A stretch of 32,813 nucleotides of DNA from Jimgerdemannia flammicorona (GCA_003990765.1 RBNJ01000333.1:1-32813); one strand, 5' to 3'; positions 4,300 to 25,655 are shown, counted from the first letter of the stretch. A program made the numbers and translations. The notes: generated by a model not told the origin, from the letters alone.

Positions 4300-4995
4300 G
4301 GCGAAATGCAGAATGATGCGACAAAAAGGCGCAGAAAGATACAATGAATAAGCGCAGAACAATACAATTAATAAGCGCAGATCGATACGATGAATAAGCG
4401 CAGCACGATAGGATGAATAAGCGCTGAACTATGTGAGGAAGTGCAGAATGATATGGCGACTAAGTGCGGAATGATACAAATAAGTGTCGAACAATACAAG
4501 AATGAGCGCAGATTGATACGATGAGCAAGGACAGAACGATAGACGAATAAGCGCAGAACGATATGAAGAATAAGCACAGAACGATATTACGAATAAGCGC
4601 AGGACTAAGCGCAGAACGATTTATACGTTGACAAGCAAAAACGATACGACCAATAAGCGCGAAATAATGACTTGAAGGGTAGGAGGATGGTAACGACAAC
4701 TAAGTGCAGAATGATGACGACTAACAACAGAACGTACCTCTCTCATTGACTAAGCGATGACGATGGCTAAGCACAAAACGATATGAGGAGTTAGCCCAGG
4801 ACGTTACGTCGAATTAGCGCAGAACGATGACGTCGACAACAAAGCGCAGAAGGGTAATAATGACTTCAATACGGAACGATAACGACGATCAAGCATAGAA
4901 CGAACCTGTCTCAACGACTAAGCGCAGAACGCCGACTAAGCGAAATAACAATGGCCAAGCACAGAACGAACATGTTTCGACTAAGCACGCTGAAA
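4300..4995 (+). repeat. Degenerate ~20-25 bp minisatellite, core TAAGCGCAGAACGAT
   Basis: Repeated (aa/ac)taagcgcagaacgat motifs with variable linkers. Confidence 0.8.
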
Positions 4996-4997
4996 GG

Positions 4998-5218
4998 GAG
5001 CAGATTTCGGAAGTCAGAAAGGGGGGCAGATGTCGAAGGTCGGAAAGGGGGGCAGATGTCGAAGGTCGGAAAGGGGGACAGATGTCGAAGGTCGGAAAGG
5101 TGGGGCAGATGTCGAAAGTCGGAAAGAGGGGCAGATGTCGAAGGTCGGAAAGTGGGGGCAGATGTCGAAGGTCGGAAAGGGGGGCAGATGTTGAAGTTGA
5201 AAAGGGGGTAGATGTTGT
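4998..5218 (+). repeat. ~21-bp tandem repeat GCAGATGTCGAAGGTCGGAAAG(G)n, ~10 copies
   Basis: Near-identical tandem copies with a variable G-run. Confidence 0.95.
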
Positions 5219-5324: not shown

Positions 5325-6038
5325 CGTCAAATAAAATAATAAGATTGGAATCAGGAGGTTGAGTAAGGAAAAAGTCGGTATAGTGCCACAAAACGCCTAT
5401 CCTAAAGTCGATCACGTTCTTTTCCAACCCAATAACAATCGCATTGCCCATCAAAACATCACTGACTGAGCCGTTCACTCACACCTCCTACCATACATGG
5501 ATGGTATCTGGAGGGACGACCTACCTCTGGGCTACGATTTACGGCTGGGCGGCGATTTACGGCTGGGCGGCGATTTATCGCTGAGAGAGGATATATCGAT
5601 GGGCATCGATTTCTGTGGACGGATAGCTGAGAGTTAATGGGGTGACAGCCTGCGTGGACAACTAATTACGTCTAACCTTTCTGAGGCTCGCTGCGAATGA
5701 CGAAGAGCATGAACAACAATTAACCTTGTTGGCTAATGACATTTGCGACAACAAATAGTCTCCGGGTGGAATTAGCGGCTGGTGGACAGTTATTCGCTTC
5801 GGGATTATTAAGGGCGACGCTGCAGTGCGTTGCGGTGGAGTGATGCACTAAATGAGTATAGCAAATGAACGTTGGAAGATGGTTAGATGCTGCGGGATGG
5901 CATGCCGTTGAGGTATGAAGTGCAACTGAGGACGGCGGTGGGCAAAATGAAGAGGAACGGCGGAATGGTGGAGTGTAGCATTCGGACAACGTTTGTTTTG
6001 AAAGTATCCACGGCCACGTGCTCTCCGCCACATTTCAT
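5325..6038 (-). repeat. Left arm of a long diverged inverted repeat (partner 7517-8468)
   Basis: The reverse complement matches the partner colinearly: tgaaatgtggcggaga.cacgtg, agcgtcgcccttaataatc, aaggttagacgtaat, cccagccgtaaatc, gactttaggataggcgt. Confidence 0.85.
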
Positions 6039-7516: not shown

Positions 7517-8468
7517 TGAAATGTGGCGGAGAACACGTGACCGTGTATTCTTGCAAGTCCGAACACTACACTCCGCCATTCCTCCGTCCATCTTCATTTC
7601 GCCCATCACCAGCCTCAGCTGCTCTCCATACCGCAACAACTTTCCTTCTCACAGCGGCTAACCTTTCCTCCAGTGGATATTCGCCGTACTCAAGGTGCAT
7701 TGCTGCGTCGTAATGCGTTGCCTACAATGGCTAGTTGTCACACTGCTACCACCCTGAAGCCAGCCGTCATAGCGTCGCCCTTAATAATCTCTTTGCGAAT
7801 AATCCTCTACAGGCCGCTAATTAATCCCCGGAGTACCGCCAACGGGGACCATCGTTGGCCAGCAGGTTATTGTCAGTAATCGGCAAAGCGTCACGCAGCT
7901 ACAAATCGGCAGCCAGCATGAAATAGTTGCTCGGTAGAAAGTCGCTACTCACTGGTAATTTGTCTCTCTTCGCCATTCCCAGCGAGTCCGGTGGAAAATC
8001 GTTTCTCACTGGTAATTTGTCTCTCTTCGCCATTCCCAGCGAGTTCAGTAGAAAGTCGTTGCTCACTGGTATTTTGTCTCTTTTCGCAATTCCCAGCGAG
8101 CCATAGCAAGGTTAGACGTAATGAGTCGCCCACGCGGGCTGGCTCCCCTATTTAACTCTCAGCGATCGGTCCACAATCGCATGTTATCGCTCGCCATCAA
8201 ATCAGCGCCATCAGTAAATCGTCGCTCCGCCGTAAATCGTTTCCCAGCCGTAAATCACAAATCATCGCGCCAGAAATGTAAGGAGCAGGATAGGGGGGGT
8301 GGGGGGGGGAGGGGGGAGGGTAGTGGTTCAGTCATTTATGTTTATAATAGGGAATGCGATTGTGATCGTGTCGGAAAAGAATGGGATTGACTTTAGGATA
8401 GGCGTGTTGTGGCGATTTGGCGACTTATTTCTCACTTAACCGTACCGATCTCAATTTATTATTTGATT
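7517..8468 (+). repeat. Right arm of a long diverged inverted repeat (partner 5325-6038)
   Basis: Same anchors in the same order as the reverse complement of 5325-6038. It is longer because of an internal tandem triplication and a G-rich run near 8293-8320. Confidence 0.85.
7930..8100 (+). repeat. Three tandem copies of a ~58-bp unit inside the right inverted arm
   Basis: gtagaaagtcg...ctcactggtaatttgtctctcttcgccattcccagcgag occurs three times; the left arm has only one similar segment. Confidence 0.9.
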
Positions 8469-10139: not shown

Positions 10140-13100
10140 GCCGCTGGGCGTGTCGTTGGAGCTGCTGCGGGGATCGTAGTGCTAGAAGTGGCGTAGCATT
10201 TCGCGGCAGCAGCAGCATGGATCGTTGCGGAAACAACCATGGCACGTCACTGTAGTTGTGGCAGGGCTCATAGTTATAGAAGCGGTGGGACCCGTCGTGA
10301 CAGCTACCGCGGGGTGGGTTTCCTTTCAGTCGTGGGGCGTGTCGTAGTAGCAGTAGCGGTGCTTGTCATGGTAGGACCCGCGGGACGCGTAGTGTTAGCA
10401 GCCGAGGGCGCGTCGTAGAAGCGTCAAAGGGATGGTCTTCCGTGATAGCGGTCGTGGGGCGCGTCGTTGGAGCTGGGGCGGGGATCTTAGTGCTAGAAGC
10501 GGCGTAGCGCTTCGAGGGTAGCATCTGCATGGCTCGTTGTGGAAACAACCATGGCCACGTCGCTGTAGTGGTGGCAGGGCTCGTAGTTATAGGAGCGGTG
10601 GGACGTGTCGTGGCAGCTGTCGTAGGGTACGTTGTTCTTGTAGCCGTGTGTCGTAGTAGCAGTAGCGGAGCCTGTCGTGGTAGGACCCGCGGGACGCGAC
10701 GTGTTAGCACCTGCGCGCGAGTCGTAAAATCATCACAGGGACGGTCTTGCATGATAGCGGGCGTGGGACATTCGGCGTTGTGCTTCGAGGTAGCAGCCGC
10801 ATGGCTCGTTGTGGAAACAACCACGGGCACGTAGCTGTAGTAGTGGCAAGGCTGGTAGAGAAGTGGTGGGATGCGTCGTGGCAGCTGCCGCAGGGTGCGT
10901 TGTCCTTGCAGCTGTCGGGCTTGTCCTGGTAGGACCCGCGGGACGCGACGTGTTATGAGCTGCGGGCGCGTCGCACAATCTTCAAAGGGACGGTCTTGCG
11001 TGATAGCGGCCGTGGGACGCATCGTTGGATCTGCGGCAGTGCGCTTCGAGGTAGCATCTGCATGGCCCGATGTGAAAATAACCACGGCCACGTCGCTGTA
11101 GTGGTGGCAGGGCGCGTAGTTACGGAAGCGGTGGGACGTGTCGTGGCAGTTACCGCAGGGTGCGTTTTTCTTGTAGCCCTGTCATATCGTAGTAGCAGTA
11201 GAGGTCCGTGTCGTGGTAGGACCCGCGGGACACGGCAAATTATCAGCGGCGGGTGCGTCGTAGAAGCGGCCGTAGGGCGCGTCATAGAAGCATCAAATGG
11301 GCGGTCTTGCATGATAGCGGCCGTGGGGCGCGTCATAGAAGCGTCAAATGGGCGGTCTTGCGTGATAGCGGCCGCGGGGCGCGTCGTTGGAGTTGCGACG
11401 GGGATCATAGTGCTAGAAGCGGCGTAGCGTTTCGTGGTAGCATCTGCATGGCTCGTTGTGGAAGCAACCACGGCCACGGCTGTAGTGGTGGCAGGGCTCG
11501 TAGTTATAGAAGCGGTGGGACGTGTCGTGGCAGCTCGTTGTTCTTGTAGCCGTGGGGCATGTCGTAGTAGCAGTAGCAATGCGTGTCGTGGTAGGACCCC
11601 CGTAGGACGCGACGTGTTAGCAACTGCGGGCGCGTCGTAAAATCATCAAAGGCACGGTCTTACGTGATAGCGGCCCTAGGACACCTGCGGTGTTGCGCTT
11701 CGAGGTAGCAGCTGCATGGCTCGGTGTGGAAACAACCACGGGCACGTCGCTGTAGTGGCGGCAGGGCTCGTAGTTATAGAAGCGGTGGGACGTGTCGTGG
11801 CAGCTGCCGTAGGGTACATTGCTCCTGTAGCCGTGGGGCATGTCGTAGTAGCAGTAGCGGTGCGTGTCGTGGTAAAATAATCAAAGGGACGGTCTTGCAG
11901 GATAGCGGGCGTGGGACGCGTCGTTGGATCGGCGGCGTTGCGCTTCGAGGTAGCAGCCGCTTGGCTCGTTATGGAAACAACCACGGGCACGTCGCTGTAG
12001 TGGTGGCAGGGCTCATAGTTATAGAAGCGGTGGGACGTGTCGTGGGAACTGCCGTAGGGTGCGTTGTTCTTAAAGCCTGGGGCATGTCGAGTAGCAGTAG
12101 CGGTCCGTGTCTTGGTAGGACCCACGGGACGCGGCATGTTATCAGCCGCGGGTGCGTCGTAGAAGCGGCCGTGGGGCGCGTCATAGAAGCATCAAATGGG
12201 CGGTCTTGGTTGATAGCGGTCGTAGGACTTGCGGGGGGATATTAGTGCTAGAAGGGCGTAGCGGTTCGAGGGTAGCATCTGCATAGCTCGTTGTGGGGCC
12301 ACGTCGCTGTAGTGGTGGCAGGGCTCGTAGTTAGAGAAGCGGTGGGACGTGTCGTGGTAGCTGTCGTAGGGTGCGTTGTTCTTGTAGTTGTGGGGCATGT
12401 CGTAGTAGCAGGAGCGGTGCGTGTAGTAGTAGGACCCGCGGGACGCGGCTTGTTATCAGCCCTGGGCGGGGCGTAGAAGCGGCCGCAGGGCGCGTCATAG
12501 AAACATCAAAAAGACGGTCTTGCTGATAGAGCATCGTTGGAGCTGCGGCGGGGGTAGTAGTGCTAGAAGCGGCGTTGCGCTTCGAGGTAGCAGCCGCATG
12601 GCTCGTTGTGGAAACAACCAGGGTACGTCGTTGTAGTGGTGGCGGGGCTCGTAGTTATAGAAGCGGTAGGACGTGGCGTGACAGCTGCCGTGGGTGCGTT
12701 GTTCTTGAAGCCGTGGGGCATGTCGTAGTAGCAGTAGCGGCGCGTGTCGTGGTAGGACCCGCGTGTTAGCAACTGCGCGCGCGTCGTAAAATCATCAAAG
12801 GGACGGTCTTGCGTGATAGTGGGCGTGGGACGCGTCGTTGGACCTTCGGCATTGCGAGGAAACAACCACGGGCACGTCGCTGTAGTGGTGGCAGGGCTCG
12901 TAGTTATGGAAGCGGTGGGACGTGTCGTGGCAGCTGCCGCAGGGTGCGTTTTTCTTGTAGCCCTGGATCATGTCGTAGTAGCAGTAGAAGTCCGTGTCGT
13001 GGTAGGACCCGCGGGACACGGCATGTTATCAGCGGCGGGTGCGGCGTAGAATCGGCCGTGGGGCGCGTCATAGAAGCATCAAATGGGCGATCTTGCGTGA

Positions 13101-16100
13101 TAGCGGCCGTGGGACGCATCGTTGGAGTTGTGGCGGGGATCTTAGTGCTAGAAGCGGCGTAGCGTTTCGAGGTAGCATCTGCATGGCTCGTTGTGGAAAC
13201 AACCACGGGCACGTCGCTGTAATGGTGGCAGGGCTCGTAGTTATAGGAGCGGTGGGGCGTGTCGTGGCAGCTGCCGTAGGGTACGATGTTCTTGTAGCCG
13301 TGGGGTGTGTCGTAGTAGCAGTAGCGGTGCGTGTCGTGTTAGCAGCTGCGGGCGCGTCGTAAAATCATTTTAGAATGGTCTTGCGGGATAGCGGGCGTGG
13401 GACGCGTCGTTGGATCGGCGGCGTTGCGCTTCGAGGTAGCAGCCGCTTGGCTCGTTGTGGAAACAACCACAAGCACGTCGCTTTAGTGGTGGCAGGGCTC
13501 GTAGTTATAGAAGAGGTGGGACGTGTCATGGGAACTGCCGTAGGGTGCGTTGTTCTTGAAGCCGTGGGGCATGTCGTAGTAGCTATAGCGGTCCGTGTCT
13601 TGGTAGGACCCGCGGGACGCGGCATGTTATCAGCCGCGGGCGCGTCGTAGAAGCGGCCGTAGGGCGCGTCATAGAAGCATCAAATGGGCGGTCTTGCGTG
13701 ATAGCGGCCGTGGGACGCGTCGTTGGAACTGCGGTGGGGATTGCGGCGTTGCCCTTCGATGTAGCAGCCGCATGGCTCGTTGTGTAAACAACCATGGGCA
13801 CGTAGCTATAATGGTAGAAGGGCTCGTAGATATGGAAGTGGCGGGATGCGCCATGGCAGCTGCCGCAGAGTGCGTTGTCCTTGTAGCCCTAGGGCGTGTC
13901 GTAGTAGCAGTAGCGCTGCGTGTCGTGGTAAGACCCGCGGGACGCGACGTATTAGCAGCCGCGGGCGCATCGTAAAATCATCAATGGGACGGTCTTGCCA
14001 TGGGATGCGTAATTGTATCTGCGGCGGGGATGGTAGTGCTAGAAGCGGCGTTGCGCTTCGAGGTAGCAGCCGTATGGCTCGTTGTGGAAACAACCGCGGG
14101 CACGTCGCTGTAGTGGTGGCAGGGCTCGTAGTTAGAGAAGCGGTGGGACGTGTCGTGGTAGCTGTCGTAGGGTGCGTTGTTCTTGTAGTTGGGGGCATGT
14201 CGTAGTAGCAGGAGCGGTGCGTGTAGTAGTAGGACCCGCGGGACGCGGCGTGTTATCAGCCCTGGGCGTGTCGTAGAAGCGGCCGCAGGGCGCGTCATAG
14301 AAATATCAAAGAGACGCTCTTGCTGATAGAGCATCGTTGGAGCTACGGCGGGGGTAGTAGTGCTAGAAGCGGCGTTGCGCTTCGAGGTAGCAGCCGCATG
14401 GCTCGTTGTGGAAACAACCAGGGTACGTCGTTGTAGTGGTGGCGGGGCTCGTAGTTATAGAAGTGGTAGGATGTGGCGTGGGTGCGTTGTTCTTGTAGCC
14501 GTGGGGCATGTCGTAGTAGCAGTAGCGTGTTAGCAGCTGCGCGCGCGTCGTAAAATCATCAAAGGGACGGTCTTGCGTGATAGTGGGCGTGGGACGCGTC
14601 GCTGGACCTTCGGCATTGCGCTTCGAGGAAACAACCACGGGCACGTCGCTGTAGTGGTGGCAGGGCTCGTAGTTAGAGAAGCGGTGGGATGTGTCGTGGT
14701 AGCTGTCGTAGGGTGCGTTGTTCTTGTAGTTGTGGGGCATGTCGTAGTAGCAGGAGCGGTGCGTGTAGTAGTAGGACCCACGGGACGCGGCGTGTTATCA
14801 GCCCTGGGCGCGTCGTAGAAGCGGCCGCAGGGCGCGTCATGGAAACATCAAAGAGACGGTCTTGCTGATAGAGCATCGTTGGAGCTGCGGCGGGGGTAGT
14901 AGTGCTAGAAGCGGCGTTGCGCTTCGAGGTAGCAGCCCCATGGCTCGTTGTGGAAACAACCAGGGTACGTCGTTGTAGTGGTGGCGGGGCTCGTAGTTAT
15001 AGAAGCGGTAGGATGTGGCGTGACAGCTGCCGTGGGTGCGTTGTTCTGGTAGCGTCGTAGTAGCAGTAGCGCGTTAGCAGCTGCGCGCGCGTCGTAAAAT
15101 CATCAAAGGGACGGTCTTGCGTGATAGTGGGCGTGGGACGCGTCGCTGAACCTTCGGCATTGCGCTTCGAGGAAACAACCACGGGCACGTCGCTGTAGTG
15201 GTGGTAGGGCTCGTAGTTATGGAAGCGGTGGGACGTGTCGTGGCAGCTGCCGCAGGGTGCGTTTTTCTTGTAGCCCTGCATCATGTCGTAGTAGCAGTAG
15301 AAGTCCGTGTCGTGGTAGGACCCGCGGGACACGGCATGTTATCAGCGGCGGGTGCGGCGTAGAATCGGCCGTGGGACGCATCGTTGGAGTTGTGGCGGGG
15401 ATCTTAGTGCTAGAAGCGGCGGAGTGTTTCGAGGTAGCATCTGCATGGCTCGTTGTGGAAACAACCACGGGCACATCGCTGTAGTGGTGGCAGGGCTCGT
15501 AGTTATAGAAGCGTTGGGACGTGTCGTGGCAGCTGCCGTAGGGTACGATGTTCTTGTAGCCGTGGGGTGTGTCGTAGTAGCAGTAGCGGTGCGTGTCGTG
15601 TTAGCAGCTGCGGGCGCGTCGTAAAATCATCAAAAGAATGGTCTTGCGGGATAGCGGGCGTGGGACGCGTCGTTGGATCGGCGGCGTTGCGCTCCGAGGT
15701 AGCAGCCGCTTGGCTCGTTGTGGAAACAACCACGAGCACGTCGCTTTAGTGGTGGCAAGGCTCGTAGTTATAGAAGAGGTGGGACGTGTCATGATAACTG
15801 CCGTAGGGCGCGTTGTTCTTGAAGCCGTGGGGCATGTCGTAGTAGCTGTAGCGGTCCGTGTCTTGGTAGGACCCGCGAGACGCGTCGTAGAAGCGGCCGT
15901 AGGGCGCGTCATAGAAGCATCAAATGGGCGGTCTTGCGTGATAGCGGCCGTGGGACGCGTCGTTGGAACTGCGGTGGGGATAGCGGCGTTGCCCTTCGAG
16001 GTAGCAGCCGCATGGCTCGTTGTGTAAACATCCATGGGCACGTAGCTATAATGGTAGTAGGGCTCGTAGATATAGAAGTGGTGGGATGCGCCGTGGCAGC

Positions 16101-16910
16101 TGCCGCAGAGTGCGTTGTCCTTGTAGCCCTAGGGCGTGTCGTAGTAGCAGTAGCGCTGCGTGTCGTGGTAAGACCCGCGGGACGCGACGTATTAGCAGCC
16201 GCGGGCGCATCGTAAAATCATCAATGGGACGGTCTTGCCATGGGTTGCGTAATTGTATCTGTGGCGGGGATGGTAGTGCTAGAAGCGGCGTTGCGCTTCG
16301 AGGTAGCAGCCGCATGGCTCGTTGTGGAAACAACCGCGGGCACGCCGCTGTAGTGGTGGCAGGGCTCGTAGTTAGAGAAGCGGTGGGACGTGTCGTGGTA
16401 GCTGTCGTTCTTGTAGCTGTGGGGCATGTCGTAGTAGCAGGAGCGGTGCGTGTAGTAGTGGGACTCGCGGGACGTCAGCCCCGGGCGCGTCGTAGAAGCG
16501 GCCGCAGGGCGCGTCATAGAAAGATCAAAGGGACGGTCTTGCTGATAGCGCGTCGTTGGAGCTGCGGCGGGGGTAGTAGTTCTAGAAGCGGCGTTGCGCT
16601 TCGAGGTAGCAGCCGTATGGCTCGTTGTGGAAACAACCATGGATACGTCGTTGTAGTGGTGGCGGGGCTCGTAGTTAGATAAGCGGTAGGACGTGGCGTG
16701 GCAGCCGCCGAGGGTGCGTTGTTCTTGTAGCCGTGGGGCATGTCGTAGTAGCAGTAGCGGCGCGTGTCGTGGTAGGACCCGCTGGACGCGGCGTGTTAGC
16801 AGCCGCGGGCGCGTCGTAGAAGCGGCCGTGGGGCGCGTCATAGAAGCACCAAATAGACGGTCTTGTGTGATAGCGGCCGTGGGACGTGTCGTAGAAGCAT
16901 CCAAGGGACG
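10140..16910. repeat. CpG-rich satellite, ~23 monomers of ~220-390 bp built from ~24-bp subunits, with a ~1.8-2.3 kb higher-order repeat
   Basis: The anchor ggctcgttgtggaaacaacc recurs roughly every 300 bp (about 10229, 10541, 10813...16629). Diagnostic variant monomers recur at 13781 and 16021, and at about 12300, 14100, 14642 and 16340. Confidence 0.95.
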
Positions 16911-18409: not shown

Positions 18410-19760
18410 GCTTTTCGAAAGTGGAAACGCTTGCGAAAATTAACGTGTTTCCGACCCCCTTTCCAAAACAAGCTTTTCGGATCTATGTAGGAAAGAAATT
18501 AGCTCTAGATTTCGAGTACTACGTGGTAACAGACGAGTCTTGTTGACCAAGGGAGAGTCATCTCTCGGGGAATTCATGCTTAGTTTTTGATACGGCTTAT
18601 TTACGTATCTTTTGGTATTGCCGGCTAGAGTGGTTCCTGAAGGACTTTGGCGTTCGCCTTGAAGGCCGGAAGAAATCGTTGGCTTTACCATGGGTTTTAA
18701 CCCTCCTTGACGAAGCAAGCCGTAGAGCGAAGCGTGGCTCACTTTTGAGCCTGACGTTATGACTCCGGTGGGGCTTCCTTTCATTTAAAGATTCGCTGGA
18801 AGCTTTCGAAAGTGGAAACGCTTGCCTAAATCAACGTGCTTCCGACCACCTTTCGAAAATCAAGCTTTTCGGATCTATAAAGGAAAGAAATTAGCTCTAG
18901 ATTTCGAGTACTCAGTGGTAACAGACGAATCTTGTTTACCAAGGGAGAGTCATCTCTCGGGGAATTCATGCATTAGTTTTTTATACCGCTTAGGAAGGAA
19001 AGAAATTAGCTCTAGATTTCGAGTACTTGGTGGTAACAGACGAATCTTGTTGACCAAGGGAGAGTCATCTCTCGGGGAATTCATGCATTTGTCTTTGATA
19101 CCGCTTATTTACGTAACTTTTGGTATTGCCGGCTAGAGTTCTTCCTTAAGGTTTTTGGCGTTCGCTTTGAAGGCCGGAAGAAATCGTTGGCTTTACCATG
19201 GTTTTTAACCCTCCTTGACGAAGCAAGCCGTAGAGGGAAGCGTGGCTCACTTTTGAGCCTGACGTTATGACTCCGGTGGGGCTTCCTTTCATTTAAAGAT
19301 TCGCTGGAAGCTTTCGAAAGTGGAAACGCTTGCCAAAATCAACGTGTTTCCGACCCCCTTTCCAAAATCAAGCTTTTCGGATCTATAAAGGAAAGAAATT
19401 AGCTCTAGATTTCGAGTACTCAGTGGTAACAGGATACCGCTTAGGAAGGAAAGAAATTAGCTCTAGATTTCGAGTACTTGGTGGTAACAGACGAATCTTG
19501 TTGACCAAGGGAGAGTCATCTCTCGGGGAATTCATGCATTTGTTTTTGATACCGCTTATTTACGTAACTTTTGGTATTGCCGGCTAGAGTGCTTCCTGAA
19601 GGTTTTTGGCGTTCGCTTTGAAGGCCGGAAGAAATCGTTGGCTTTACCATGGTTATTAACCCTCCTTGACGAAGCAAGCCGTAGAGGGAAGCGTGGCTCA
19701 CTTTTGAGCCTGACGCTATGACTCCGGTGGGGCTTCCTTACATTTAGAGATTCGCTCGAG
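18410..19760 (+). repeat. Three tandem ~390-510 bp units upstream of 18S; probable rDNA IGS/5'ETS subrepeats
   Basis: Units start with ctttcgaaagtggaaacgcttg at about 18411, 18802 and 19310 and are nearly identical. Units 2 and 3 carry an internal ~110-bp duplication, partly deleted in unit 3. The repeat is certain; the IGS/ETS identity is inferred from its position ~240 bp before the 18S start. Confidence 0.8.
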
Positions 19761-19994
19761 GCCTTTGGCGTTCGTTTGAAGGCCGGAAGTAGAACTCTCT
19801 CACTCGCTGTGCGAAGCGAAAGGATTTATTGCCCTTGGGCTTTTTGATCCTTTTTCTCTGCATACATTGGCATTCATTTTGTCAATGAAAAAGGATTGGA
19901 TAACTGCCGAGTGTGTCGGGTTTTCTCGATTGACTCGCTTTCGCTCATTTTTATGCGGAATTTTTTTCGCATATAAAAGAGAGAATATTGTAGT

Positions 19995-20899
19995 TACCTG
20001 ACTAAGCTATGCATGTCTAAGTATAATTAACTTTGGACTGTGAAACTGCGAATGGCTCATTAAATCAGTTATAGTTTATTTGATAATACCTTACTACTTG
20101 GATATCCGTAGTAATTCTAGAGCTACTAAATATATAAAATCCTGACTTCTGGAAGGGATGTATTTATTAGATAAAAACCTAATGCGGGCAACCGCTTCTT
20201 GGGTGATTCTTAATAACTATTCGAATCGTACTGCCTTGCGCGGACGATGATTCATTGCAAATTACTCAATCCCGATACGCCCTTTGGGGTCTTGTAAATC
20301 GGCATGGATACATAATTCGGGTTCCAGCAGCCGCGGTAATTCCAGCTTATGAAAGATGTTACAGTTAAAAAGCTCATAGGACCGGGCGGTCGGGCCTTCT
20401 GGTCCGTACTGCTTTGGGTTGGATGTTTAAAGACAGACATATGCTTGCATACATTGGCATGGAATAAATGGAATAGGACTTTGGTTCTATTTTGTTGGTT
20501 CTAGGACCTTTGTAACGATTAATAGAGATAGTTGGGGGCATTAGTATTTAATTGCCAGAGGTGAAATTCTTGGATTTATGAAAGACTAACTTCTGCGAAA
20601 GCATTTGCCAATTAAAGTTTGAGTTCCAAAGGAAGTATGTTCAAAAGGCTGAAACTTAAAGAAAATTGATATAAGGTTACAACCTTGGCCGAAAGGTCTT
20701 GGTAATATTTTGAAACTCCATCGTGCATTGGAGTTATTGCTCTTCATCGAGGAATTTCTAGTAAGCGCGAGTCATCTGCTCACGTTAACTACGTCCCTAA
20801 ACGACCTATTATCACTATCACAAATTGGATGGCTTATTGAGTGCCTCGAATCAACATCCAGAAGCTGGCAACAGCATCCGGGTTTTGAGAAGTTGGGCA
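19995..20899 (+). pseudogene. 18S rRNA: 18S (SSU) rRNA pseudogene collapsed to ~0.9 kb by multiple internal deletions
   Basis: Colinear conserved SSU blocks: tacctg, atgcatgtctaagtataa, gtgaaactgcgaatggctcattaaatcagtta, ccagcagccgcggtaattccagct, agaggtgaaattcttggattta, ctgcgaaagcatttgcca, ggctgaaacttaaag, ctagtaagcgcgagtcatc, gagaagttgggca. Confidence 0.95.
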
Positions 20900-20941
20900 G
20901 AACGCAGTGAAATGTGATAAGTAATGTGAATTGCAGAATTC
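20899..20941 (+). pseudogene. 5.8S rRNA: 5.8S rRNA core fragment fused directly to the truncated 18S (first copy)
   Basis: agaacgcagtgaaatgtgataagtaatgtgaattgcagaattc matches the fungal 5.8S core AGAACGCAGCGAAATGCGATAAGTAATGTGAATTGCAGAATTC with two C-to-T changes. Confidence 0.92.
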
Positions 20942-21697
20942 GAAAATGACATCCAAAATTTGGTTTGTTTGCTAGTCAGACAGCGCCAAATTATTGGGCT
21001 TTGGGCTTGCCGAATTTTATTTCGGCTGGCTTGAAATAATTTAACTACGTTTGTATAGGGTGGGCAGCAACAAATATCTTGTGTGATTTCAGAACGCAGT
21101 GAAATGTGATAAGCAATGTGAATTGCAGAATTCGAAAATGACATCCAAAATTTGGTTTGTTTGCTAGTCAGACAGCTCGCTTTGGGCTTGCCGAATTTTG
21201 TTTCGGCTGGCTTGAAATAGTTTAACTACGTTTGTATAGGGCGGGCAGCAACAAATATCTTGGGTGATTTCAGAACACAGTGAAATGTGAGAAGCAATGT
21301 GAATTGCAGAATTCGAAAATGACATCCAAAATTTGGTTTGTTTGCTAGTCAGACAGCGCCAAATTATTGGGCTTTGGGCTTGCCGAATTTTATTTCGACG
21401 TTTGTATAGGGCGGGCAGCAACTGACATCCAAAATTTAGTTTGTTTGCTAGTCAGACAGCGCCAAATTATTGGGCTTTGGGCTTGCCGAATTTTATTTCT
21501 ACGTTTGTATAGGGCGGGCAGCAACAAATATCTTGTGCTCTGATTTGCTTCGCTCAATCGAGACAAAAAGTAATGTGAATTGCAGAATTCGAAAATGGCA
21601 TCCAAAATTTGGTTTGTTTGCTAGTCAGACAGCGCCAAATTATTGGGCTTTGGGCTTGCCGAATTTTATTTCGGCTGGCTTGAAATAGTTTAACTAC

Positions 21698-23205
21698 TGT
21701 GACAAGCAGCAGAAGTCAAACGTATCTGGACAGCTAGAACTGCTTTGTCAAAAGACAGTCAAAGATGTCTGGACAGCTAGGGCTGCTTTGTCATGACAAC
21801 TTATATAATTAGCTAGACATACCAGACAGGGTATCTTTTTTTTTTTTTTTTTTTTATAGTCACTTGGACTCCTTCCTTTATTAATACACCTGTCTATCCT
21901 CTATATAATACACAGTACCCACCCCTATCCGATCCCCCTATACCAGAAAGTGTATCTGTACAGGACCTGAACACTTGTACAGGATCTGAACACTTGTACA
22001 GGACCTGAACACTTGTACAGAACCAGAAACACCTGCCATAAATAGCCTTCTATAATTAGCCATGTAGCAACTAGGTAGCAACCAACTTGTATAAAATACC
22101 CCAGAGACAAGAGTGAATAAACCTCAGTCGGAATTGAAGTACAAACCAAAGAAGCCTCTAAAGATTGAGCATTTGTCCCCTTTTCCCACTCCGGTCCATT
22201 TTCCGATACAAAGAACGAGTCCGTTTTGGTTCGCTTGCTAGATAAGCCTGAAGAATCCAAGAAATCCGCCGCCATTTGAGTAATCCGCTGCTTAAGGAAT
22301 AAACCGCCGTTTTCAAGAAGTCCGCCTTTTGCCACAAAGCCAGTCTGTTGACACAACTTCGCAGTAGAGCCAGTCTAACGACGTAACTCCGCGTAAACGA
22401 AGCCAGTCTTGACATAACTTTGCCAAGAGAAGAGGATCCGAGTTATTTAAGAAGTCCGCCGATTCAGGAGAATCCGCGTCATCTGCCGTTTTCAAGTTAT
22501 CCGCTATTCCCAGAGAACCCGCCTTAAGGAAACTTGCCACAAGCCAGTCTTCTGACGCAAATTCGCAGTGGAGCCAGTCTACGACGTAACCCCGCGCAAA
22601 CGAAGCTAGTCTTTGACGTAACTTGCCAATAATCCGCGATCCGCGCCATCCGAGTTATTTCCCAGAACCCCGCCGATTCAGGAAGAATCCGCGACATCCG
22701 AGCTATCCGAGTTATCCGAATTATCCGCCGCCCGAGTTATTCACCCGTTCCCAGTGAGCCGATTCAGGAAGAATCCGCGTCACCGAGTTATCCGAGTTAT
22801 CCACCAAATCCGCATAAGGAAACCGCCGCGCTACACAGAGATCGTCGCGCTACACAGAGATCGTCACGCAGAAATCGCATAAGAAGTCCACTCGCACTAC
22901 ACAAAGATCGTCGCGCTACACAAGAGATCGTCACGCAGAAATCGCATACTTTTGGAGATCGCCGTCACTCAAGAAGGAAACCGCTAAATTACCAGTCCGC
23001 CACACACCCATAAATCGCCGCTACACCCAGAGAACCCTCCCAATAAGGAAATCCGCCAGAATCGACCACCGTATCCAGATTTGACTATTATACCACTAAA
23101 CACCAAGAAAATTTTGTTGCTTTTGACAAAGTAACTGGGGGCTCAAGCCAAACTACATCAACCCCCAACCTTGTAATTTGCCTCCGTTGAGCCAGGCACG
23201 TTACA
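21698..23205. mobile_element. Solo LTR or LTR-derived non-autonomous insertion, 1508 bp
   Basis: Begins TGTGAC and ends GTTACA, flanked by a 4-bp duplication CTAC (21694-21697 and 23206-23209). Removing it restores taactacgtttg as in the other units. It contains TATAAAA (~22091) and AATAAA (~22116), and no gag/pol ORF is evident. Confidence 0.85.
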
Positions 23206-23244
23206 CTACGTTTGTATAGGGCGGGCAGCAACAAATATCTTGTG

Positions 23245-25655
23245 CTCGAGACAAACTCTGATTTGCTTCGCTCACTCGAGACAAACTCTGATTTGCTTCG
23301 CTCACTCGAGACAAACTCTGATTTGCTTCGCTCAATCGAGACAAACTCTGATTTCAGAACGCAGTGAAATGTGATAAGTAATGTGAATTGCAGAATTCCA
23401 AAATGACATCCAAAATGTGTTTTGTTTGCTAGTCAGACAGCGCCAAATTATTGGGCTTTGGGCTTGCCGAATTTTATTTCGGCTGGCTTGAAATAGTTTA
23501 ACTACGTTTGTATAGGGCGGGCAGAAACAAATATCTTGTGCTCGAGACAAACTCTGATTTGCTTCGCTCGCTCAAGACAAACTCTGATTTGTTAGAGTTA
23601 TGAACGTAGCTCAAACTTCGGCAAAGTGGCCGAAGCCACGGATAAACCACTATCATGCAATCTTTCAGGTCTTTCATGCAATCTTAGCTTAGTGTCAGTT
23701 CCCTGCCACGCCGTTTCTTATGCAATCTTAGCTTAGTCTCAGTTCCCGTTGCGCTGTTTCTTATGCAATGTTAGCCTAGTCTCAGTTCCCCGGCAAGGTG
23801 CCAGCGGCAAATAGCTTAGCAACGTTTCAGTATGCATTATATGTAATATCCCCCTGAGCGACTGAGTACGCGTCGCATCTTAACAATCAAGCGCGTAGAC
23901 TACGCCTGTATACTTAGTTAGTTCCTGCAATCAGTTACGCAACCCATCCCGCCCTTCCCTCTTGGAGGAGGAACAATAAATGTGCGGCCCCTTCGCTTTA
24001 CGCGAATGGCGGGCCTGGGAAGCGCATGCTTCCATATTCACCAAACCCGTCGACCCAGCTTACATCAGCACACCCGATTTAGCATAACACATCTCACATA
24101 CATTTCACGCGAAGGACACTTTGCTTCGCTCAATCGAGACAAACTCTGATTTGCTTCGCTCACTCGAGACAAACTCTGATTGGCTTCGCTCAATCGAGAC
24201 AAACTCTGATTTCAGAACGTAGTGAAATGTGATAAGTAATGTGAATTGCAGAATTCGAAAATGACATCCAAAATTTGGTTTGTTTGCTAGTCAGACATCG
24301 CCAAATTATTGGGCTTTGGGCTTGCCGAATTTTATTTCGGCTGGCTTGAAATAGTTTAACTACGTTTGTATAGGGCGGGCAGCAACAAATATCTTGTGCT
24401 GGAGACAAACTCTGATTTGCTTCGCTCACTCGAGACAAACTCTTATTTGCTTCGCTCAATCGAGACAAACTCTGATTTGCTTCGCTCACTCGAGACAAAC
24501 TCTGATTTCAGAACGCAGTGAAATGTGATAAGTAATGTGAATTGCAGAATTCGAAAATGACATCCAAAATTTGGTTTGTTTGCTTGTCAGACAGCGCCAA
24601 ATTATTGGGCTTTGGGCTTGCCGAATTTTATTTCGGCTGGCTTGAAATAGTTTAACTACGTTTGATAGGGCGGGCAGCAACAAATATCTTGTGCTCGAGA
24701 CAAACTCTGATTTGCTTCGCTCAATTGAGACAAACTCTGATTTGCCTTCGCTCACTCGAGACAAACGCTGATTTGCTTCGCTCAATCGAGACAAACTCTG
24801 ATTTTCGCTCACTCGAGACAAACTCTGATTTGCTTCGCTCACTCGAGACAAACTCTGATTTCCTAACGCAGTGAAATGTAATAAGTAATGTGAATTGCAG
24901 AATTCGAAAATGACATCCAAAATTTGGTTTGTTTGCTAGTCAGACAGCGCCAAATTATTGGGCTTTGGGCTTGCCGAATTTTATTTCGGCTGGCTTGAAA
25001 TAGTTTAACTACGTTTGTATAGGGCGGGCAGCAACAAATATCTTGTGCTCGAGACAAACTCTGATTTGTTTCGCTCAATCGAGACAAACTCTGATTTGCC
25101 TTCGCTCACTCGAGACAAACGCTGATTTGCTTCGCTCAATCGAGACAAACTCTGATTTTCGCTCACTCGAGACAAACTCTTATTTGCTTCGCTCAATCGA
25201 GACAAACTCTGATTTGCTTCGCTCACTCGAGACAAACTCTGATTTCAGAACGCAGTGAAATGTGATAAGTAATGTGAATTGCAGAATTCGAAAATGACAT
25301 CCAAAATTTGGTTTGTTTCCTAGTCAGACAGCGCCAAATTATTGGGCTTTGGGCTTGCCGAATTTTATTTCGGCTGGCTTGAAATAGTTTAACTACGTTT
25401 GTATAGGGCGGGCAGCAACAAATATCTTGTGCTCGAGACAAACTCTGATTTGCTTCGCTCAATCGAGACAAACTCTGATTTGCCTTCGCTCACTCGAGAC
25501 AAACGCTGATTTGCTTCGCTCAATCGAGACAAACTCTGATTTTCGCTCACTCGAGACAAACTCTGATTTGTTTCGCTCAATCGAGACAAACTCTGATTTG
25601 CTTCGCTCAATCGAGACAAACTCTGATTTGCTTCGCACACTCGAGACAAACTCTA
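23245..25655 (+). repeat. 30-bp minisatellite TCGAGACAAACTCTGATTTGCTTCGCTCA(C/A) nested in the rDNA-derived units
   Basis: Blocks of 4, 5, 4, 6, 7 and 8 copies of gagacaaac in successive units, with head-to-tail copies and no spacers. Confidence 0.95.
23592..24119 (+). mobile_element. ~0.53 kb LTR-like insertion in the 30-bp subrepeat
   Basis: Interrupts ctctgatttg|cttcgctc with TTTG on both sides (23588-23591 and 24120-24123). TGTTA...TAACA spans 23590-24089. It has three ~41-bp internal repeats (atgcaatcttagcttagtctcagttccc) and AATAAA near 23975. Boundaries are ambiguous. Confidence 0.7.

Follow-up and report, generated by a model that had tools for sequence, protein, structure and literature searches.

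Within a 32,813-nucleotide stretch of DNA from Jimgerdemannia flammicorona (GCA_003990765.1, RBNJ01000333.1:1-32813; hereafter "the window", by which we mean this whole stretch of 32.8 kb), a collapsed 18S ribosomal RNA (rRNA) gene runs directly into a tandem array of ten same-strand units built on a piece of 5.8S rRNA. We think that this locus is probably a decayed and internally deleted unit of eukaryotic ribosomal DNA (rDNA), in other words a pseudogene relic in which the block containing the 5.8S piece has been locally amplified. It combines clear homology to rRNA with the loss of parts essential for function, as an rDNA pseudogene or relic does by definition, and Rfam detects no intact rRNA gene inside the window. 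The host of the relic is best explained as a eukaryote with a fungal-type 5.8S core, the relic itself being either displaced or located at the edge of an rDNA array. An earlier note on this DNA had described a tandem amplification in sense orientation, about 10 times, straight after a collapsed 18S, and had derived the array from rDNA; self-BLAST and Rfam agree with the description, and the derivation is borne out by Rfam matches to small-subunit and 5.8S rRNA and by BLAST matches to real rDNA. The structure presented here was read from the assembled sequence alone.

Results

The collapsed 18S gene and its fusion to 5.8S

Rfam was run in two ways, at gathering thresholds and in E-value mode. 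At gathering thresholds, a single feature is found in the whole window, the 18S remnant (19984..20898, + strand). The underlying match to RF01960 (SSU_rRNA_eukarya) extends over 19984-20949 (+) with 237.6 bits, and although this exceeds the gathering score of 50, the gene is not a full-length 18S (~1.8 kb): the 966 nt of the match stand for model positions 1-1831, and it is in this sense that we call the 18S collapsed.

For comparison with real rDNA, 113 loci were collected from metagenome contigs by a pattern scan for the 5.8S core. In one of them (L036), two 500-nt tiles of the 18S region, at about 500-1000, have only 1 homolog among the 113 loci, which suggests an insertion or an intron in that metagenome contig. 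Against these loci, BLAST resolves the remnant into five colinear blocks with 66-87% identity, located at about 20000-20266, 20314-20406, 20424-20611, 20610-20684 and 20682-20899, and nhmmer tiles confirm this mapping with E-values from 7.7e-66 to 1.9e-04. With locus L053 as the reference for block positions and substitution counts, remnant positions 17-283 correspond to L053 398-660, 331-423 to 909-1014, 441-628 to 1120-1307, 627-701 to 1443-1518 and 699-916 to 1851-2088; a sixth BLAST block, which is the 5.8S core, follows at 916-979 (L053 2500-2562). The ends of the last three 18S blocks abut or overlap by 1-3 nt. Compared with real rDNA, the remnant thus has four internal deletions and lacks the 3' end of 18S, and its 5' end is retained. 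About 412 nt of L053 are absent between 18S and 5.8S, and with them the 3' end of 18S, the internal transcribed spacer 1 (ITS1) and 5.8S up to its position 39.

Over 18S and 5.8S together, 162 differences from L053 were counted, and these lean towards A+T (62 are C>T or G>A, as against 21 that are T>C or A>G). Repeat-induced point mutation (RIP) and CpG deamination were considered as causes of the decay, and gain no support, the CpG observed/expected ratio being ~0.9-1.2 and the RIP indices negative.

The 5.8S pieces

In E-value mode, Rfam reports eight matches to 5.8S, all on the + strand, beginning at 20899, 21091, 21272, 23356, 24214, 24510, 24865 and 25247. Their scores range from 26 to 39.5 bits (E 1.6e-07 to 1.2e-03), all under the gathering score of 42 for RF00002. 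Each match spans 64 nt and covers positions 40-102 (42-100 in one copy) of a model of 154 positions, so none is a full-length 5.8S (model 1-154, with both its 5' and its 3' part, which base-pair with 28S), and the nhmmer 5.8S tiles likewise match the core only. BLAST against the 113 loci agrees: unit positions 1-64 match 5.8S with 83-85% identity over 64-65 nt, and the true end of the homology falls at about unit position 64/65. Beyond it lie 124 nt of unestablished origin, which we call segment X.

The earlier note had proposed a 5.8S core of about 43 nt, ending at a junction written gaattc|gaaaatgacatcc. The core is indeed present, at a length of 64 nt rather than 43, and the supposed junction is not a breakpoint, because the covariance-model alignment to 5.8S continues across it: the posterior probability dips over ~10 nt and is then high again, and the homology runs 21 nt further, to model position 102. 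As a marker of the array, the site keeps its use. A 31-mer across it occurs 9 times in the window at up to 3 mismatches and matches in none of 100 shuffles, which shows that the array is real and far beyond chance.

All eight cores carry the same departures from real 5.8S. These common departures, together with an identity of 93-99% between units, indicate that the fragment decayed first and was amplified later.

Anatomy of the array

Self-BLAST of one unit places every copy within 20899-25654, all on the + strand. There are ten units in all; eight of them have a full core, one has a truncated core (21568) and one is without a core (21423). Several forms can be followed along the array. In units 1-3 the period is 181 bp, and the 30-bp subrepeat that appears further on is absent. 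In unit 1 (20899..21090; Rfam 39.5 bits, E 1.6e-07), the 5.8S fragment is joined directly to the 18S remnant and followed by X, and self-BLAST gives 97.8% identity over unit positions 1-185. Unit 2 (21091..21271; 38.4 bits), of the 181-bp type, has an 11-nt deletion in X according to the unit alignment; unit 3 (21272..21422; 37.1 bits) has a 22-nt deletion in X and ends early, at about unit position 173 by self-BLAST.

The next two units are incomplete. Unit 4 (21423..21567) has no core, starting at about unit position 46 and ending in one 30-bp subrepeat; it is recognised by self-BLAST (unit positions 46-226 at 79.6%) and by a profile of X (E 2e-30). Unit 5 has a core that begins at about unit position 21, and is broken at position 150 by the first of two insertions. 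Its first part (21568..21697) is 98.5% identical over unit positions 21-150 by self-BLAST and is met by an nhmmer 5.8S tile at E 1.5e-04; its second part (23205..23355; 97.4%) takes up X again near its end, at unit position 146, and continues with four 30-bp subrepeats, where Tandem Repeats Finder (TRF) reports a period of 30 and 3.7 copies.

Unit 6 has a core and X, after which its subrepeats begin (23356..23591; 33.3 bits, self-BLAST 95.8%), is broken by the second insertion, and is completed by the rest of its subrepeats (24120..24213; self-BLAST, TRF period 30, 3.1 copies). The last four units are longer (296-408 bp), because 3-7 copies of the 30-bp subrepeat lie between X and the next core: unit 7 (24214..24509; 37.4 bits) has 296 bp, with core, X and 3-4 subrepeats; unit 8 (24510..24864; 39.5 bits) has 355 bp; unit 9 (24865..25246; 26 bits, E 1.2e-03) has 382 bp; and unit 10 (25247..25654; 39.5 bits) has core, X and about 7 subrepeats (TRF 25432-25654), within which the array stops. 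All four are also recovered by self-BLAST or TRF.

Identity among the eight core-bearing units is 93.1-98.9% over 186 columns, and reaches 98.4-98.9% in the last four. The description of the array as young thus suits units 7-10 only; it does not suit a 5.8S piece that was already decayed, nor an array with two insertions and several structural forms. Within the 30-bp subrepeat there is an inverted repeat of 9 bp (seen at 25065 and 25567), which may favour slippage. A derivation of this subrepeat from the 5' part of 5.8S or from 28S was tried and given up, as BLAST of three subrepeats against the 113 loci returned 2 chance-level rows (E 2.2 and 5.8); a match to snoU61 at 25410-25460 is also at chance level (13.4 bits, E 6.8). 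The hairpin pointed out in the earlier note does appear, as a strong one, in the minimum-energy fold of the unit. The unit as a whole folds no better than shuffled sequence (z = -1.40, with 18 of 200 shuffles folding as well).

Two insertions in the array

Two transposon-type insertions make up 2,035 of the 4,757 bases of the marked array span. The first (21698..23204, 1.5 kb) is solo-LTR-like, that is, it resembles a single long terminal repeat (LTR). It ends in TGTGAC...GTTACA, CTAC is duplicated on either side of the break in unit 5, and self-BLAST finds unit positions 146-150 on both flanks, so that both the TG...CA termini and the 4-6-bp target-site duplication of a solo LTR are present. 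Its interior shows a T20 run at 21838-21857 along with numerous short repeats (9, 19, 43 and ~204 bp). No coding capacity was recognised in it (no Pfam match in the 3 frames scanned), and self-BLAST shows no second copy in the window. Near the point where the array resumes, a 28S profile (tile positions 296-345) gives a weak + match at 23131-23180 (E 0.74); this match does not rise above noise, nor is it colinear with the weak 28S match described below.

The second insertion (23592..24119, ~0.5 kb) lies within a 30-bp subrepeat of unit 6, with TTTG on both sides and a 43-bp internal repeat, as seen by TRF and by reading the sequence. In both cases 4-5 nt are found on either side of the insertion where the unit is taken up again, from which we conclude that the insertions hit pre-existing units.

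The origin of segment X

There are three candidate origins for X: a collapsed 28S, unrelated flanking DNA, and the internal transcribed spacer 2 (ITS2). None of the comparisons with the 113 loci gave a significant match to X, whether by BLAST, by nhmmer (long, local, and as 17 tiles), by pairwise and spliced alignments judged against shuffles, or by a reciprocal profile; in particular, no ITS2 and no 3' half of 5.8S in these loci matches it. Positions 103-154 of the 5.8S model are undetectable beside X by Rfam, BLAST and nhmmer tiles. Possible remnants of 5.8S 3' motifs, seen in X by eye at about the right spacing, were dropped for want of support from any tool.

A derivation of X and the 30-bp subrepeat from the 28S gene is doubtful, if conceivable; the unit would then be a "mini-rDNA" from which the 3' part of 5.8S, the ITS2 and most of 28S have been deleted, in the way that the 18S was shortened. 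Only one match of X recurs: colinear and on the + strand, it points to a conserved site in 28S, ~1.07 kb downstream of the 5.8S core; BLAST rows to this site come from about 20 loci, with pairwise alignments of 54-73 columns, and the nhmmer profile of that 28S stretch meets the unit copies at E 1.9-6.7 window-wide. The reciprocal search points to the same place, with 21 of 23 matches at E<=10 on that site (best E 0.32). As to significance, the real score is reached by 1 of 2000 shuffles, but with a profile chosen after the fact, and in the fair test, with 17 tiles on both strands, by 58 of 2000. Other tests speak against a 28S origin. Pairwise local alignment does no better than with shuffles, of which 54 of 150 score as high as X; in the spliced colinear alignment, shuffles equal the mean in 26 of 200 cases and the maximum in 90 of 200, and an 18S control region scores equally high; the window-wide matches share their E-values with evident noise; the agreeing loci are homologous to each other and so amount to one observation; and the Rfam model of large-subunit (LSU) rRNA finds nothing. 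Indeed, no LSU match at E<=1 exists anywhere in the window, which confirms that no 28S follows the array, as the earlier note had said, and nhmmer with 28S tile profiles over the window gives at best only E 0.5. We regard the resemblance of X to 28S as being at noise level (E 0.3-3), and keep it as a weak lead only.

We consider it similarly doubtful that X is unrelated, non-rDNA sequence. The rDNA would then have ended at about 5.8S position 102, and the duplication would have spanned the boundary between the relic and its neighbour. Such a view is in line with the lack of any significant match of X to any part of the 113 real rDNA loci, and the 18S relic shows that conserved rDNA of such an age should stay recognisable. 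On the other hand, a spacer such as ITS2 would be equally unrecognisable, the window contains no other copy of X, and the weak resemblance to 28S points the other way.

The earlier note had favoured ITS2, and had seen in the unit a 5.8S-ITS2 block of an orphan rDNA unit that had become a young satellite, possibly transcribed by RNA polymerase I from retained spacer repeats. We hold this to be unlikely, and somewhat more so than either of the two preceding origins. X does follow the 5.8S fragment on the same strand, it includes a stable hairpin, and there are spacer-type repeats upstream of the 18S remnant; furthermore, ITS2 is too variable across species for a failed match to foreign ITS2 to exclude it. 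An ITS2 typically has a conserved four-helix fold with hallmark motifs; the single-sequence fold made of the unit shows one strong hairpin. By position, ITS2 is the sequence from the 3' end of 5.8S to the 5' end of 28S, and X does not answer to this definition, as neither end is detectable beside it: the 5.8S alignment ends at model position 102 of 154, and no 28S 5' end comes after X. That the 3' third of 5.8S is undetectable while the 18S blocks are still recognisable, at 66-87%, implies at least a deletion between the 5.8S piece and X. Moreover, the array is not uniform, insertions interrupt it, and the piece that was amplified had already decayed.

Surroundings in the window

Directly upstream of the 18S remnant lie spacer-type repeats (18465..19838, +), recognised as repeat families and by TRF, which consist of three repeats of ~450-510 bp (78-95% alike) and of 115-bp repeats; they may represent a former promoter and external transcribed spacer (ETS), duplicated. 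Further upstream, 6.7 kb of G+C-rich tandem repeats (10146..16875, +; TRF, composition, self-BLAST) have a period of ~300-325 bp, a G+C content of 59-60% and a G-skew, with frames open on both strands and no Pfam match in the 4 frames scanned. These may be former subrepeats of the intergenic spacer (IGS). The spacer-like layout upstream and the retained 5' end of 18S together suggest a genomic rDNA unit rather than a retro-copy.

Among the 104 listed frames of at least 90 amino acids in the window, 37 were scanned and gave no Pfam family above the curated cut-off, so that no gene is recognisable there on this basis; transfer RNA genes are also absent from the window. A scan for sigma-70 promoters and terminators returned counts under the shuffle means, and is irrelevant to a eukaryote. 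The 474 words of the window looked for in 3 sequencing runs occur with shares of 0.05-0.10; we would guess that these are perhaps only conserved 18S words.

Elsewhere in the window, long diverged inverted arms (5357-6037 and 7517-8441; 7 pairs with 78-88% complementarity, 18-bp tandem motifs, and a centre of ~1.5 kb) form a foldback or palindromic element. There are three separate minisatellites, at 1505-2392 (18/34 bp), 4308-4602 (23 bp) and 4992-5215 (26 bp, G-rich). The CpG observed/expected ratio is 0.8-1.3 in every segment of the window and RIP indices are negative; neither a loss of CpG driven by methylation nor RIP has left a sign here.

Discussion

A possible history of the locus

The following order of events would account for what is observed. 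An rDNA unit would have been stranded, probably keeping its upstream spacer repeats, and its 18S would have lost about half its length by several internal deletions. By a further deletion, a point ~100-200 nt short of the 18S 3' end would have come to abut 5.8S at its position 40, with the loss of ITS1. After this decay, the 5.8S fragment, together with X and a short tail, would have been duplicated in tandem as one block, to ten units, most likely by unequal crossing-over or replication slippage, and the hairpin-forming 30-bp motif at the unit boundary would have expanded in the later units. The two mobile elements would have landed in the array afterwards, and private deletions and truncated units would also have arisen after the amplification. 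In our opinion, the array is best read as neutral, decaying repeat DNA, ordinary genomic debris and not a working gene. Nothing suggests a working RNA from it, and we assume it to be silent and put forward no function for it.

Tandem repeats are prone to misassembly, so one might think of an artefact in which repeats were wrongly stitched or expanded, but this is very improbable, because the units differ by point changes, private deletions, numbers of subrepeats and two insertions with duplicated target sites, as expected of real diverged copies and not of a collapsed or looped assembly graph.

Some points weigh against our reading of the locus as a decayed and locally amplified relic. Our 113 reference loci come from metagenome contigs chosen for a fungal-type 5.8S core and are probably not close relatives, and a part of the measured "decay" may be a difference between lineages. 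The CpG observed/expected ratio is 0.88-1.20 in the remnant and the array, which means that CpG is not depleted; the RIP indices are negative, and no specific mutational process is identified. Finally, if the unit were abundant elsewhere in the genome, it would be a true satellite. Satellites form long homogeneous arrays, usually at several loci, and what we observe is ten units of several structural forms at one locus. The searches made outside the window were all negative: a 37-nt degenerate pattern of X has 0 matches in metagenome contigs, the 31-mer across the supposed junction has 0 in the genome contigs collection, and the 5.8S core pattern has 0 in viral contigs.

Transcription from the old spacer is possible, the promoter function of the latter being putative. 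A much bolder version, to which we give very little credence, sees in the array a single locus of a repeat family that is specific to the lineage, was seeded by coding rDNA and is still transcribed from the retained spacer and ETS. It would then give multimeric or small RNAs with ~43 nt of near-perfect identity to real 5.8S, possibly feeding back on rDNA silencing or rRNA processing. The locus would be of greater importance only if the unit were abundant genome-wide or transcribed.

Such relics also have a practical consequence. Since they keep a near-intact 5.8S core and stretches of 18S, they can attract rRNA-depletion probes, ITS primers and read mappers, and both annotation and barcoding should mask them.

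Comparison with known systems

Satellites derived from 5S rDNA and from the IGS are tandem repeat families seeded by rDNA, and the array described here differs from them in its source segment. In the literature searched, we met no tandem repeat that is described as based on a fragment of 5.8S, which is no proof that none is in print.

The degraded rDNA units reported in human, which are found at a distance from the functional arrays and at their ends (Robicheau et al. 2017, PMC5381670), resemble our locus in being rDNA copies outside the homogenised array, with spacer and coding parts, that decay towards random sequence. In contrast to those units, a sub-fragment of the relic (the 5.8S piece with X) has here been re-amplified in tandem ten times. 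In filamentous ascomycetes, rRNA pseudogenes, which are divergent paralogs of 18S, 5.8S and 28S, have been attributed to RIP (Li et al. 2017, PMC5555474). Our locus has in common with these, as they are presented there, divergent rRNA paralogs in rDNA of fungal type and a mutation bias to A+T; unlike them, it has negative RIP indices and undepleted CpG, and has been shaped by large deletions more than by point mutation.

In tomato, truncated rDNA units with deletions and interrupted by retrotransposons have been multiplied by unequal recombination, yielding a satellite (Jo et al. 2009, PMC2679016). The passages of that paper on these units describe diverged, truncated units with internal deletions and LTR-type insertions, as at our locus, and in both cases short subrepeats expand as the neighbouring rDNA is lost. 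The tomato module is the IGS subrepeat called type I (53 bp), and the coding parts there are 89-94% like normal rDNA (PMC2679016), whereas our module contains a coding fragment of 5.8S and its coding remnants are far more decayed and deleted. The rDNA-derived "mega-satellite" of Capsicum takes in the IGS, portions of the coding sequence and the spacers inside the unit (Grabiele et al. 2018, as related in PMC13655049). According to that second-hand account, it is likewise a tandem amplification of rDNA pieces that reaches beyond the IGS, with coding and internal-spacer sequence; its units are large and present at many chromosome ends, compared with ten units of 181-408 bp that are known here at one locus.

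If our reading is correct, the locus is a small and clear example of a known process, in which a stranded rDNA unit decays by deletions and a leftover piece is amplified anew. It would represent one stage in the conversion of rDNA into "junk" or satellite DNA, which has already been described for the IGS and for larger pieces of rDNA in plants and human.

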